Virus record (IMG/VR): IMGVR_UViG_2778261544_000001
Origin: a virus
Lineage: Duplodnaviria > Heunggongvirae > Uroviricota > Caudoviricetes
DNA length: 10,687 bases
Strand: one strand, 5' to 3'
The notes under the pieces are model-generated. The model did no database searches. It had not been told where the DNA came from and was given only the letters and a program-made list of their open reading frames with translations. A program made the translations under genes and the position numbers. Shown here one piece after another: positions 1,185-10,687 of this stretch. Position 1 is the first letter of the stretch. Every line of letters begins with the position of its first letter.

Positions 1185-1925
1185 ATGCCTGTACCAAATC
1201 CTACAATGCCGGTGAAAGGGGCCGGGACCACACTGTGGGTTTATAAGGGGAACGGTGACCCTTATGCGAACCCGCTTTCAGACGTTGACTGGTCGCGTCT
1301 GGCAAAAGTTAAAGACCTGACGCCCGGCGAACTGACCGCTGAGTCCTATGACGACAGTTATCTCGATGATGAAGATGCGGACTGGACTGCGACCGGGCAG
1401 GGGCAGAAATCTGCCGGAGATACCAGCTTCACGCTGGCGTGGATGCCCGGAGAGCAGGGGCAGCAGGCGCTGCTGGCGTGGTTTAATGAAGGCGATACCC
1501 GTGCCTATAAAATCCGCTTCCCGAACGGCACGGTCGATGTGTTCCGTGGCTGGGTCAGCAGTATCGGTAAGGCGGTGACGGCGAAGGAAGTGATCACCCG
1601 CACGGTGAAAGTCACCAATGTGGGACGTCCGTCGATGGCAGAAGATCGCAGCACGGTAACAGCGGCAACCGGCATGACCGTGACGCCTGCCAGCACCTCG
1701 GTGGTGAAAGGGCAGAGCACCACGCTGACCGTGGCCTTCCAGCCGGAGGGCGCAACCGACAAGAGCTTCCGTGCGGTGTCAGCGGATAAAACAAAAGCCA
1801 CCGTGTCGGTCAGTGGTATGACCATCACTGTGAAAGGCGTCGCTGCAGGTAAGGTCAACATTCCGGTTGTATCCGGTAATGGTGAACTTGCTGCGGTTGC
1901 AGAAATCAACGTCACCGCCAGTTAA
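1185..1925 (+). CDS. V: Major tail tube protein V, with a C-terminal Ig-like domain
   Basis: 246-aa product from ATG 1185, preceded by GAGGA (1175-1179). [22 protein letters not shown]... matches lambda gpV. The track ORF begins earlier at 1155 inside U, but 1185 has the SD and gives the canonical length. TAA at 1923-1925. Confidence 0.94.
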
Positions 1926-1940: not shown

Positions 1941-2363
1941 ATGTTCCTGAAAACCGAATCATTTGAACATAACGGTGTGACCGTCACGCTTTCTGAACTG
2001 TCAGCCCTGCAGCGTATTGAGCATCTTGCCTGGTTGAAAGAGCAGGAAAAAAAGGCTGAATCCAGTGGCAACCTGCAGGTGTCTGTAGAGGATCTTATCA
2101 GAGGCGGGGCGTTTCTGGTGGCGATGTCTCTGTGGCATAACCATCCGCAGAAGACAAAGCTGCCGTCCATGAATGAAGCCATTACGCAGATTGAGCAGGA
2201 AGTGCTTACCACCTGGCCCACGGAGGCAATTGCTCAGGCTGAAAACGTGGTGTTACGTCTGTCCGGAATGTCTGAGTTTGTTGTGAATAATGCCCCTGAA
2301 CAGGCAGATGACGCCGGGCCTGCAGAGCCTGTTTCTGCGGGAAAGTGTTCGACGGTGAGCTGA
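1941..2363 (+). CDS. G: Tail assembly chaperone G (zero-frame product)
   Basis: 140-aa ORF with ATG 1941 preceded by GGAGAG (1929-1934). MFLKTESFEHNGVTVTLSELSALQRIEHLAWLKEQEKK... matches lambda gpG. The slippery heptamer GGGAAAG lies at 2339-2345 near its 3' end. TGA at 2361-2363. Confidence 0.92.
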   Translation: MFLKTESFEHNGVTVTLSELSALQRIEHLAWLKEQEKKAESSGNLQVSVEDLIRGGAFLVAMSLWHNHPQKTKLPSMNEAITQIEQEVLTTWPTEAIAQAENVVLRLSGMSEFVVNNAPEQADDAGPAEPVSAGKCSTVS

Positions 2364-2779
2364 GTTTTGCCCTGAAACTGGCGCGTGAAATGGGGCGACC
2401 CGACTGGCGCGCCATGCTTGCCGGGATGTCATCCACGGAGTATGCCGACTGGCACCGCTTTTACAGTACCCATTATTTTCATGATGTTCTGCTGGATATG
2501 CACTTTTCCGGGCTGACGTACACCGTGCTCAGCCTGTTTTTCAGCGATCCGGATATGCATCCGCTGGATTTCAGTCTGCTGAACCGGCGCGAGGCTGACG
2601 AAGAGCCTGAAGATGATGTGCTGATGCAGAAAGCGGCAGGGCTTGCCGGAGGCGTTCGTTTTGGCCCGGACGGGAATGAAGTTATCCCCGCTTCCCCGGA
2701 TGTGGCGGACATGACGGAGGATGACGTAATGCTGATGACAGTATCAGAAGGGATCGCAGGAGGAGTCCGGTATGGCTGA
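1941..2779 (+). CDS. T: Tail assembly chaperone G-T fusion, made by programmed -1 ribosomal frameshift at 2339-2345 (about 279 aa)
   Basis: The -1 frame ORF (track 2345..2779) has no independent SD or ATG; the track's start is a GTG inside the slippery site. It overlaps the end of G by 19 nt and ends at TGA 2777-2779, overlapping the H start. The arrangement and the heptamer G GGA AAG are the same as the lambda G/GT frameshift. Confidence 0.85.
2339..2345 (+). promoter_or_regulatory. Slippery heptanucleotide GGGAAAG (X XXY YYZ) for the G to G-T -1 frameshift
   Basis: Read directly: in the G frame the codons are GCG GGA AAG (2337-2345). Slipping back one base gives GGG AAA G and continues into the 144-codon T frame. 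Confidence 0.85.
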
Positions 2780-5351
2780 ACCGGTAGGCGATCTGGTCGT
2801 TGATTTAAGTCTGGATGCGGCCAGATTTGACGAGCAGATGGCCAGAGTCAGGCGTCATTTTTCCGGTACGGAAAGTGATGCGAAAAAAACAGCGGCAGTC
2901 GTTGAACAGTCGATGAACCGACAGGCGCTGGCTGCACAGAAAGCGGGGATTTCCGTCGGGCAGTATAAAGCCGCCATGCGTATGCTGCCTGCGCAGTTCA
3001 CCGACGTGGCCACACAGCTTGCAGGGGGGCAGAATCCGTGGCTGATCCTGCTGCAACAGGGTGGTCAGGTGAAGGACTCCTTCGGCGGGATGATCCCCAT
3101 GTTCAGGGGGCTTGCCGGCGCGATCACCCTGCCGATGGTTGGTATCACTTCGCTGGCGGTGGCGACCGGTGCGCTGGCGTATGCCTGGTATCAGGGTGAC
3201 TCAACCCTGTCCGATTTCAATAAAACGCTGGTCCTTTCCGGTAATCAGGCGGGACTGACGGCAGATCGTATGTTGGTCCTGTCCAGAACCGGGCAGGCGG
3301 CAGGGCTGACGTTTAACCAGACCAGCGAGTCACTGACGGCGCTGGTGAATGCCGGTGTGCGTGGTGGTGAGCAGTTTGAGGCAATCAGCCAGAGTGTGGC
3401 GCGTTTCTCCTCTGCATCCGGCGTGGAGGTGGACAAGGTCGCTGAAGCCTTCGGGAAGCTGACCACAGACCCGACGTCGGGGCTGACGGCGATGGCGCGC
3501 CAGTTCCATAACGTGACGGCGGAGCAGATTGCGTATGTTGCTCAGTTGCAGCGTTCCGGCGATGAAGCCGGGGCATTGCAGGCGGCGAACGAGGCCGCAA
3601 CGAAAGGGTTTGATGACCAGACCCGTAAACTGAAAGATAACATGGGTACGCTGGAGACCTGGGCAGACAAGACTGCACAGGCATTCAAATCCATGTGGGA
3701 TGCGGTGCTGGATATTGGCCGCCCGGACTCCTCTGCTGATATGCTCGCCAAAGCTGAAAAAGCTTTTGATGAAGCGGATAAAAAATGGCAGTGGTATCAG
3801 AGCCGGAGCCACCGGCGCGGTAAAACGTCAGCATTTCTTGCCAATCTTCGGGGGGCATGGGAGAAGAGAGAGAATGCGCGACTTGGGCTTTCAGCCGCCA
3901 CGTTGCAGGCAGATCTTGAAAAGGCCAGTGAGATGGCAGCAAAAGATCGGGCCGAGTCTGAGGCATCACGGCTGAAATATACCGAAGAGGCGCAGAAGGC
4001 TTACGAACAGCTGCAGACGCCGCTGGAGAAATATACCGCCCGTCAGGAAGAACTGAACAAGGCACTGAAAGACGGGAAAATCCTGCAGGCAGATTACAAC
4101 ACGCTGATGGCAGCGGCGAAAAAGGATTATGAATCGGCGCTGAAAAAGCCGAAACAGTCCGGCGTGAGGGGGGCTGCGGGCGATCGTCAGGAAGACAGTG
4201 CTCATGCTGCCCTGCTGACGCTTCAGGCAGAACTCCGGACGCTGGAGAAGCATGCCGGAGCAAATGAGAAAATCAGCCAGCAGCGCCGGGATTTGTGGAA
4301 GGCGGAGAGTCAGTTCGCGGTACTGGAGGAGGCGGCGCAACGTCGCCAGCTGTCTGCACAGGAGAAATCCCTGCTGGCGCATAAAGATGAGACGCTGGAG
4401 TACAAACGCCAGCTGGCTGCACTTGGCGACAAGGTTACGTATCAGGAGCGCCTGAACGCGCTGGCGCAGCAGGCGGATAAATTCGCACAGCAGCAACGGG
4501 CAAAACGGGCCGCCATTGATGCGAAAAGCCGGGGGCTGACTGGCCGGCAGGCAGAACGGGAAGCCACGGAACAGCGCCTGAAGGAACAGTATGGCGATAA
4601 TCCGCTGGCGCTGAATAACGTCATGTCAGAGCAGAAAAAGACCTGGGCGGCTGAAGACCAGCTTCGCGGGAGCTGGATGGCAGGTCTGAAGTCCGGCTGG
4701 AGTGAGTGGGAAGAGAGCGCCACGGACAGTATGTCGCAGGTAAAAAGTGCAGCCACGCAGACCTTTGATGGTATTGCACAGAATATGGCGGCGATGCTGA
4801 CCGGCAGTGAGCAGAACTGGCGCAGCTTCACCCGTTCCGTGCTGTCCATGATGACAGAAATTCTGCTTAAGCAGGCAATGGTGGGGATTGTCGGGAGTAT
4901 CGGCAGCGCCATTGGCGGGGCTGTTGGTGGCGGCTCATCAGCGTCAGGTGGTGCAGCCATTCAGGCAGCTGCGGCGAAACTCCATTTTGCGACCGGAGGA
5001 TTTACGGGAACCGGTGGCAAATATGAACCTGCCGGGATTGTTCACCGTGGTGAATTTGTCTTCACGAAGGAGGCAACCAGCCGGATTGGCGTGGGGAATC
5101 TTTACCGGCTGATGCGCGGCTATGCCACCGGCGGTTATGTCGGTACACCGGGCAGCATGGCGGACAGTCGGTCGCAGGCGTCCGGGAAGTTTGAGCAGAA
5201 TAACCATGTGGTGATTAACAACGACGGCACGAACGGTCAGATAGGGCCACAGGCGCTGAAGGCGGTTTATGACGTAGCCCGTAAGGCGGCAATGGATGTT
5301 GTGACCGGGCAGATGCGTGATGGTGGTCTGTTCTCCGGAGGTGGACGATGA
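2772..5351 (+). CDS. H: Tail tape measure protein H (tail length determinant)
   Basis: 859-aa ORF with ATG 2772 preceded by AGGAGGAG (2758-2765). MAEPVGDLVVDLSLDAARFDEQMARVRRHFSG... matches lambda gpH. It has a long Ala/Gln/Glu/Lys/Arg-rich helical middle, a Gly-rich hydrophobic segment near the C-terminus (about 4878-5017), and ends ...GGLFSGGGR. TGA at 5349-5351 overlaps the M start. Confidence 0.95.
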   Translation: MAEPVGDLVVDLSLDAARFDEQMARVRRHFSGTESDAKKTAAVVEQSMNRQALAAQKAGISVGQYKAAMRMLPAQFTDVATQLAGGQNPWLILLQQGGQVKDSFGGMIPMFRGLAGAITLPMVGITSLAVATGALAYAWYQGDSTLSDFNKTLVLSGNQAGLTADRMLVLSRTGQAAGLTFNQTSESLTALVNAGVRGGEQFEAISQSVARFSSASGVEVDKVAEAFGKLTTDPTSGLTAMARQFHNVTAEQIAYVAQLQRSGDEAGALQAANEAATKGFDDQTRKLKDNMGTLETWADKTAQAFKSMWDAVLDIGRPDSSADMLAKAEKAFDEADKKWQWYQSRSHRRGKTSAFLANLRGAWEKRENARLGLSAATLQADLEKASEMAAKDRAESEASRLKYTEEAQKAYEQLQTPLEKYTARQEELNKALKDGKILQADYNTLMAAAKKDYESALKKPKQSGVRGAAGDRQEDSAHAALLTLQAELRTLEKHAGANEKISQQRRDLWKAESQFAVLEEAAQRRQLSAQEKSLLAHKDETLEYKRQLAALGDKVTYQERLNALAQQADKFAQQQRAKRAAIDAKSRGLTGRQAEREATEQRLKEQYGDNPLALNNVMSEQKKTWAAEDQLRGSWMAGLKSGWSEWEESATDSMSQVKSAATQTFDGIAQNMAAMLTGSEQNWRSFTRSVLSMMTEILLKQAMVGIVGSIGSAIGGAVGGGSSASGGAAIQAAAAKLHFATGGFTGTGGKYEPAGIVHRGEFVFTKEATSRIGVGNLYRLMRGYATGGYVGTPGSMADSRSQASGKFEQNNHVVINNDGTNGQIGPQALKAVYDVARKAAMDVVTGQMRDGGLFSGGGR

Positions 5352-6379: not shown

Positions 6380-7123
6380 ATGACAGAGACAGAATCAGCG
6401 ATTCTGGCGCACGCCCGGCGATGTGCGCCAGCGGAGTCGTGCGGCTTCGTGGTGAGAGCGCCGGAGGGGGAAAGATATTTTCCCTGCGTGAATATTTCCG
6501 GTGAGCCGGAGGATTATTTCCGGATGGCTCCGGAGGACTGGCTGCAGGCAGAGATGCAGGGTGAGATTGTGACACTGGTCCACAGTCATCCCGGTGGTCT
6601 GCCCTGGCTGAGTGAGGCTGACCGGCGGCTGCAGGTGCAGAGTGATTTGCCGTGGTGGCTGGTCTGCCGGGGGGCGATTCACAAGTTCCGCTGTGTGCCG
6701 CATCTCACCGGGCGTCGCTTTGAGCACGGGGTGACGGACTGTTACACGCTGTTCCGGGATGCTTATCATCTGGCGGGGATTGAGATGCCGGATTTTCATC
6801 GCGGGGATGACTGGTGGCGTAACGGTCAGAATCTCTATCTTGACAATATGGAGGCGACTGGTTTTTACCGTGTCGCACTGACAGAGGCGCAGCCTGGCGA
6901 CGTGCTGCTGTGCTGCTTTGGTTCATCGGTGCCGAATCATGCCGCAATTTACTGCGGCGACGGCGAGCTGCTGCACCATATTCCTGAACAACTGAGTAAA
7001 CGAGAGAGGTATACCGACAAATGGCAGCGACGCACACACTCCCTCTGGCGTCACCGGGAATGGCACGCATCTGCCTTTACGGGGATTTGCAACGATTTGG
7101 CCGCCGCATCGACCTTCGTGTGA
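6380..7123 (+). CDS. K: Tail tip assembly protein K, a two-domain peptidase-like protein (JAB/MPN JAMM domain plus NlpC/P60 domain)
   Basis: 247-aa product from ATG 6380 (MTETESAILAHARRCAPAESCGFVV...), 5 nt after the L stop. It contains a JAMM-type motif H-S-H-x7-S-x2-D (HSHPGGLPWLSEAD, nt 6581-6622) with an upstream E-x2-G (ESCG, Glu at 6434-6436), and a downstream Cys (TDCYTL, 6740-6742) plus His residues typical of NlpC/P60. The start is ambiguous: the ATG at 6524 has a strong SD (GGAGGA at 6508-6513), while 6380 has none. The 3' end overlaps I by 103 nt. Confidence 0.8.
   Translation: MTETESAILAHARRCAPAESCGFVVRAPEGERYFPCVNISGEPEDYFRMAPEDWLQAEMQGEIVTLVHSHPGGLPWLSEADRRLQVQSDLPWWLVCRGAIHKFRCVPHLTGRRFEHGVTDCYTLFRDAYHLAGIEMPDFHRGDDWWRNGQNLYLDNMEATGFYRVALTEAQPGDVLLCCFGSSVPNHAAIYCGDGELLHHIPEQLSKRERYTDKWQRRTHSLWRHREWHASAFTGICNDLAAASTFV

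Positions 7124-7749: not shown

Positions 7750-10687
<2,938 letters not shown>

Follow-up and report, generated by a model that had tools for sequence, protein, structure and literature searches.

A lambda-type -1 frameshift site at the G/T junction of a lambdoid tail module and the conservation of its slip motif among relatives

How do ribosomes reach a reading frame that opens inside the end of another gene? The window, by which we mean the whole stretch of viral DNA that was analysed (10,687 nucleotides), raises this question at the junction of two tail genes, where the T frame starts within the 3′-end of gene G and in the -1 register relative to it. A sequence-only reading of this DNA had proposed that a programmed ribosomal frameshift at GGGAAAG joins the two into a fused chaperone. 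Our analysis confirms what was observed and supports this interpretation: the best explanation of the locus is almost certainly a lambda-type G/GT -1 programmed ribosomal frameshift, in a lambdoid phage or an E. coli prophage.

The window is a lambdoid tail module with the gene order Z-U-V-G-T-H-M-L-K-I-J, and as a whole it matches lambdoid phages at ~95%. The following features were assigned to it.

1185..1925, + strand: gene V, the major tail tube protein (Pfam Phage_TTP_12, E 1.9e-70, and Big_2).
1941..2363, + strand: gene G, the tail assembly chaperone of 140 aa (Pfam PF06894 Phage_TAC_2, E 3.7e-53).
2345..2779, + strand: the T reading frame, -1 relative to G, with 144 sense codons and TGA at 2777-2779 (Pfam PF06223 Phage_tail_T, E 2.1e-14).
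2772..5351, + strand: gene H, the tape-measure protein of 859 aa (Pfam TMP_2, E 6.5e-71, and Tape_meas_lam_C).
Gene M: Pfam Phage_min_tail.
Gene L: Pfam Phage_tail_L.
Gene I: Pfam Lambda_tail_I.

The start of V (ATG 1185) was set with the help of sequence context and of the near-identical E. coli H22 prophage as annotated by PGAP, and J, on the + strand, runs open from 7750 to the window's end. Profile searches establish the family membership of both parts of the pair: G covers positions 1-125 of the 126 in Phage_TAC_2 and scores 179 bits against a cut-off of 27, and the T frame scores 54 bits against a cut-off of 25.9. The two lie between V upstream and H downstream, which is the lambda-type placement. 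The end of T overlaps H by 8 nt (H ATG 2772), and the Shine-Dalgarno (SD) sequence of H, AGGAGGA, is located within T. On the minus strand, an ORF of 472 aa (8683-10101) runs antisense to J without a Pfam match and is most likely spurious. Within the C-terminal part of T, a segment is duplicated (2612-2677 and 2720-2776, DDVLMQKAAGLAGGVRFGPDG and DDVMLMTVSEGIAGGVRYG); in the shorter T domains of the phi80, HK225 and Gifsy-2 types, the xGGVR(F/Y)G motif occurs just once.

The site, its register and the architecture of the two frames can be read directly from the sequence, and two further features define where a change of frame could occur.

2339-2345, + strand: slippery heptamer G_GGA_AAG (GGGAAAG), by its sequence and register a -1 programmed ribosomal frameshift site.
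2312-2360, + strand: stretch in which both frames are open, 16 zero-frame codons.

Position 2339 is a third codon position of G, counted from its ATG at 1941, so the zero frame is phased GC[G GGA AAG] and the heptamer has the form X_XXY_YYZ. Through the site the zero frame reads ...GCG GGA AAG UGU UCG ACG GUG AGC UGA. The AAG is G codon 135 and the TGA at 2361-2363 is codon 141, in agreement with the earlier claim that the heptamer sits six codons before the G stop. A ribosome that slipped by -1 would next read GTG at 2345, and 144 sense codons lead from there to the TGA at 2777-2779; the coordinates that had been given for this ORF (2345-2779, ending 8 nt into H) are all correct. Upstream of the heptamer the -1 frame is open for 11 codons only, from 2312, and the frame as a whole is open over 2312-2779. 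Because it is closed by the stop at 2309-2311, G and T could be joined by a -1 shift only within 2312-2360.

The bare string GGGAAAG is not rare, with two copies in the window versus 1.5 expected from shuffles. When the position is taken into account, about 0.002 heptamers of the form X_XXA_AAG are expected by chance in the 16 in-register positions of the dual-open stretch, an estimate based on the window's own frequency of the motif. In addition, the + strand genes contain eight in-register X_XXY_YYZ heptamers, of which only the one at the G/T junction is followed by a long -1 ORF (144 codons versus 0-46). The second GGGAAAG, at 6468-6474 in gene K, was rejected as a shift site, as it is out of register and starts at a second codon position.

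A second in-register heptamer exists within G itself. This is a dnaX-type A_AAA_AAG motif at 2048-2054 (G codons 36-38, E-K-K), where a -1 slip would meet a stop after one codon and yield an abortive peptide of ~39 aa. The motif is limited to this variant of G, whose EQEKKAES version is present in 27 of the relatives that were fetched; one further relative with this version has a stop just upstream. At the equivalent position lambda G has RQAEQAES, without a slippery run.

To what extent is this the lambda site? The G-T region aligns without gaps to positions 9711-10549 of lambda (J02459) at 93.6% identity, the heptamer is collinear with its lambda counterpart (10109-10115) and lies in a run of 67 nt without a difference, which bears out the earlier statement that the site is identical in form to that of lambda. 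On the strength of this alignment, the heptamer is orthologous to the lambda G/GT frameshift site. At the protein level T is identical to lambda T (144/144 aa), and G shares 116 of 140 aa with lambda gpG. The window and lambda have in common the heptamer, its register, the six codons to UGA, a 144-codon T, the 8-nt overlap with H, and the gene order. They differ in the middle of G and in the length of H, which has 859 aa here versus 853 aa both in lambda and in the H22 prophage, which is otherwise near-identical (so small a difference would be expected to alter tail length slightly in lambda-type phages), but the recoding site itself shows no differences. The divergence of G is patchy, with a mosaic boundary within the gene: its first ~90 nt and everything from ~2320 on are nearly identical to lambda, and the middle of G, including a patch at ~2030-2110, is strongly diverged.

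The -1 programmed frameshift of lambda gpG/gpGT was reportedly described by Levin, Hendrix and Casjens in 1993 and by Xu, Hendrix and Duda in 2013 and 2014. We drew the experimental facts on lambda from reviews and from Maynard 2012. In these accounts, G_GGA_AAG is the experimentally established -1 site (Levin 1993, as described in PMC5009743, PMC3296357, PMC7618472), and standard decoding gives gpG while a low-level shift to -1 gives gpGT; ribosomes stay in the zero frame in ~96% of cases (a shift of ~4%), and the molar ratio of gpG to gpGT is ~30:1 (PMC5009743, PMC3296357, PMC7618472). Both proteins are required for tail assembly and neither is found in the virion (PMC5009743, PMC3296357, PMC7618472); the tape-measure protein H is the binding partner of the G parts, and V that of the T domain of gpGT (PMC5009743). 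E. coli has a single tRNA-Lys (mnm5s2UUU), on which the shift depends and to whose U34 thiolation it is sensitive; hypomodification of this tRNA raises lambda frameshifting and lowers phage yield (PMC5009743, PMC3296357, PMC7618472).

By analogy with lambda, whose sequence is identical over the 67 nt around the site, the slip itself, a frequency of ~4% and a role in assembly may be expected here as well. Specifically, most ribosomes on G would stop at the UGA and release the 140-aa gpG, and a small fraction would slip back one base on G_GGA_AAG. In these ribosomes two tRNAs would re-pair, tRNA-Gly from GGA to GGG and tRNA-Lys (a single species in E. coli, mnm5s2UUU) from AAG to AAA, and translation would continue with GUG UUC GAC... 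in the T frame. The predicted coding unit is as follows.

1941..2779, + strand: G-T fusion, join(1941..2345,2345..2779), with base 2345 read twice, 279 aa.

The product, of which the peptide SAGKVFDGELSF is a part, would be identical to gpG up to Lys135 and would comprise 135 + 144 = 279 aa. Building this fusion gives the junction ...PVSAGK-VFDGELSF..., precisely as had been proposed. We do not, however, agree with the accompanying claim that the exact junction residues depend on the slip mechanism: they are the same for a one-tRNA and a two-tRNA slip because GGA and GGG both encode Gly and AAG and AAA both encode Lys, so that Gly-Lys is encoded in both frames. The 279-aa fusion aligns over its full length with the fusions of nine phages, in which Lys135 is invariant; a sequence search of the PDB with the fusion returned no match. 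As in the lambda literature, many gpG and few gpGT would coat the tape-measure protein H, the T domain would recruit the major tail protein V, and a fixed slip frequency would set the gpG:gpGT ratio needed for tail assembly.

If a frameshift joins G to T, what is conserved at the junction? We compared relatives at two distances. The first set contained 80 close IMG/VR relatives and three phage records (83 loci), and GGGAAAG was kept in 81 of these; the other two lack a scored in-register heptamer. The second set was built from ten diverged phages and 73 loci from bacterial assemblies sampled at one genome per species, which together gave 51 distinct junction sequences, down to ~39% aa identity; their sources are phages and the genomes of numerous enterobacterial genera. 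Every one of these 51 relatives has, within the dual-open stretch at the G/T junction, an in-register heptamer ending in A_AAG or A_AAA. By type, there are 37 GGAAAAG, nine GGGAAAG, two AAAAAAG, two GGCAAAA and one GGGAAAA; the commonest slip site in the lambda G/T protein family is hence G_GAA_AAG (37/51) and not the classical G_GGA_AAG. The AAA core (columns A4-A6) is invariant in the 51 relatives while the flanks diverge, with a mean column identity of 77%. The consensus of the T domain (x-x-x-x-E-L-x-F-x-x-x-LAREFGRPDWR, on to ..AMLA..) starts at the first codon after the slip.

The stop codon of G behaves differently from the AAA core. It follows the AAG or AAA by six, two or one codons and may be TGA, TAG or TAA, so the conserved element of the junction is neither its spacing nor its identity. 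Taken together with the Pfam families, the synteny and the orthology to lambda, the slip motif in 51/51 relatives upholds the reading of this site as the conserved tail-assembly-chaperone frameshift.

A prophage of E. coli H22 carries the G-T segment with 100% identity, and of 5426 complete E. coli genomes, 3691 contain a match. Lambda-type G-T DNA was also encountered in loci L095-L111, which are short or low-coverage (~1x) contigs from assemblies labelled Neobacillus, Oceanobacillus, Kitasatospora, Chromatium, Shewanella, Pseudomonas, Leeuwenhoekiella, Paenibacillus, Enterococcus and others. Their best-matching protein segment is 99% identical to the G-T fusion of the window (82% for L108-L110), and they are most simply explained as contamination of sequencing libraries by lambda DNA and not as real prophages.

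The same relatives bear on whether T could start on its own. The sequence-only reading had held that T has neither an SD nor an ATG of its own. No ATG and no SD above background were found, and to that extent the statement stands; it overlooks the GTG at 2345, which GenBank and RefSeq use as the start. T might accordingly be a stand-alone gene that initiates at this GTG, with the heptamer incidental. Bacteria can initiate at GTG, this one precedes every other start codon in the open -1 frame, and GenBank J02459, RefSeq NC_001416 and the PGAP annotation of E. coli H22 all list T on its own, as a CDS that opens with the GTG of the slip site. The initiation signals do not favor such a gene. We calculated anti-SD energies of -6.6 to -10.8 kcal/mol for G, H, M, L, I, Z and U (-6.6 for G and -10.3 for H), but only -3.4 kcal/mol before GTG 2345, which is at the window's background mean of -3.43, and the sole G-rich stretch, GGGA, is only 2 nt away. 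The codon itself is also poorly kept. The first T-frame codon is GTG in 3/51 relatives and GTC, GCC, GTA, GCT, ATA, GCA or GTT in the others, none of which was counted as a start; in one close relative it is GTT. In 38/51 relatives there is no ATG, GTG or TTG at all between the upstream stop and the conserved Phe8, that is, before the conserved T residues. Lastly, the reported lambda products are gpG and gpGT (PMC5009743, PMC3296357). We consider independent initiation at the GTG very unlikely; the GTG of the lambda-type phages is a coincidental choice of valine codon, and the conserved feature of the junction is the slip motif and not a start codon.

A related proposal places the start of T at ATG 2390 (T residue 16), used either by termination-reinitiation or by weak independent initiation; it is more improbable still. 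This ATG lies 27 nt past the G stop, and the record of phage IdasGreatGrand has a 'minor tail protein' that begins at the equivalent ATG. Against this, it is not preceded by an SD (-2.3 kcal/mol), residue 16 is Phe (LAREF) and not Met in most relatives, and protein-level conservation in all relatives covers the 15 residues before it, which are therefore translated. Because the SD energies are at background, the start codons are not conserved and Met16 is mostly Phe, neither independent initiation nor reinitiation is the conserved route to T. The comparison supports the view that the G-T fusion, in its C-terminal part, is the only form in which T is translated.

The frame could in principle also be changed before translation, by slippage of RNA polymerase on the G or A run rather than by the ribosome. 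Transcriptional slippage usually needs homopolymer runs far longer than GGG or AAA, and those are the only runs at the window site. The process does make fusion proteins in some bacterial and phage genes (PMC5009743), and two relatives have a run of six A (AAAAAAG). What is conserved across the relatives, however, is the codon register and the potential for tRNA re-pairing (N_NNA_AAG) and not the length of a run, and the response of lambda frameshifting to the modification of tRNA-Lys is a property of the ribosome (PMC3296357). We regard the probability of this explanation as negligible and return to the ribosomal -1 shift.

If ribosomes shift at G_GGA_AAG, is the heptamer assisted by other elements? 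The A_AAA_AAG site of E. coli dnaX, with a shift of ~50%, is flanked by an SD-like element upstream and a stem-loop downstream. The slippage of a single tRNA-Lys from AAG to AAA is common to dnaX and the site described here (PMC7618472, PMC5009743), but the dnaX stimulators have no detectable counterpart at the window site, and the rate in lambda is ~4% (PMC3296357). An upstream SD-like stimulator was rejected, as the anti-SD mean before the heptamer (-3.43) equals background. A conserved downstream structure was likewise rejected: the fold of the 100 nt at 2346-2445 is no better than that of shuffles (z = -1.19), and the 51 sequences yield neither a consensus structure nor a robust excess of pair counts.

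Downstream of the heptamer, the consensus of 10 sequences contains a three-way structure with an outer stem of 2353-2360 and 2416-2423, set off from the heptamer by a 7-nt spacer, but the term for covariation is positive (+0.38). This stem is absent from the RNAalifold consensus of 51 sequences, in which only a trivial 4-bp hairpin is predicted. Covariation measures based on cells are above shuffles in the 51 sequences, and the robust measures equal them (6 versus 6.4 double-change pairs, 20 versus 19.4 pair types); helix 1 taken alone has the same outcome, with no robust excess over shuffles. For the stem itself, 77% of cells are paired. Pair 16/84 occurs as AU (17), GC (10), CG (5) and GU (3), and pair 18/82 as CG (15), UG (14), GU (6), UA (5) and AU (4). 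Both arms encode conserved residues of T, which counts against the stem. It is unlikely, on our assessment of these data, that in a lambda- and phi80-like subset a long-range stem between 2353-2360 (CGGUGAGC) and 2416-2423 (GCUUGCCG) tunes the frequency of the slip. If it did, the textbook heptamer-only signal of lambda would gain a lineage-specific stimulator.

Ribosome collision offers another potential source of stimulation, as the UGA is six codons downstream. In reporters with the same heptamer, the collision effect peaks at a spacing of 8-10 codons, A-site to A-site, and a construct with 5 codons gave significantly less frameshifting than the peak (PMC6815119). We rejected stimulation by collision as a conserved feature, given that the stops of relatives are 1, 2 or 6 codons away. 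Because no stimulatory element was found, efficiency must rest on the heptamer alone, and the absence of a detectable conserved stimulator is consistent with a heptamer-only shift of a few percent.

Other phages place the site in a wider context. The tail-assembly-chaperone frameshift is conserved in long-tailed dsDNA phages, as reported by Xu, Hendrix and Duda in 2004, with E/E+E' of P2 as a further case. Among the lambdoid phages, phi80, N15, HK225 and the Gifsy-type phages share homologous G and T domains and the position of the junction. Several of the public records already reflect this: that of phi80 has a gpG-T CDS written as a join and marks a 'slippery sequence for -1 translational frameshift', those of Gifsy-2 and HK225 note a frameshift hybrid, and that of HK630 annotates or notes the same fusion. 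Unlike the window, phi80, N15, HK225 and the Gifsy-type phages use the heptamer G_GAA_AAG, at which P-site re-pairing is imperfect (GAA to GGA), and the distance from the AAG to their G stop is 1, 2 or 6 codons. Long-tailed dsDNA phages in general have two overlapping ORFs between the major tail and tape-measure genes, and the longer chaperone product arises by a low-level -1 shift (PMC5009743). Most of the other examples have no detectable sequence similarity to lambda G/T and use other heptamers, whereas the window belongs to the lambda sequence family.

The G/GT frameshift of this locus is already known, being the founding example of the tail-assembly-chaperone frameshift, and the description of the site as well known rather than novel was apt for what is a textbook lambda case. 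As a discovery it carries little weight, since lambda G/GT recoding occurs in prophages of most E. coli genomes. The useful by-products concern annotation and the family as a whole. In public annotation, T belongs in the 279-aa fusion and not in a stand-alone CDS, and correcting this is the first of them. The others are that the form with GAA in place of GGA is the commonest in the family and that the core of the slip motif, A_AAG or A_AAA, is invariant.
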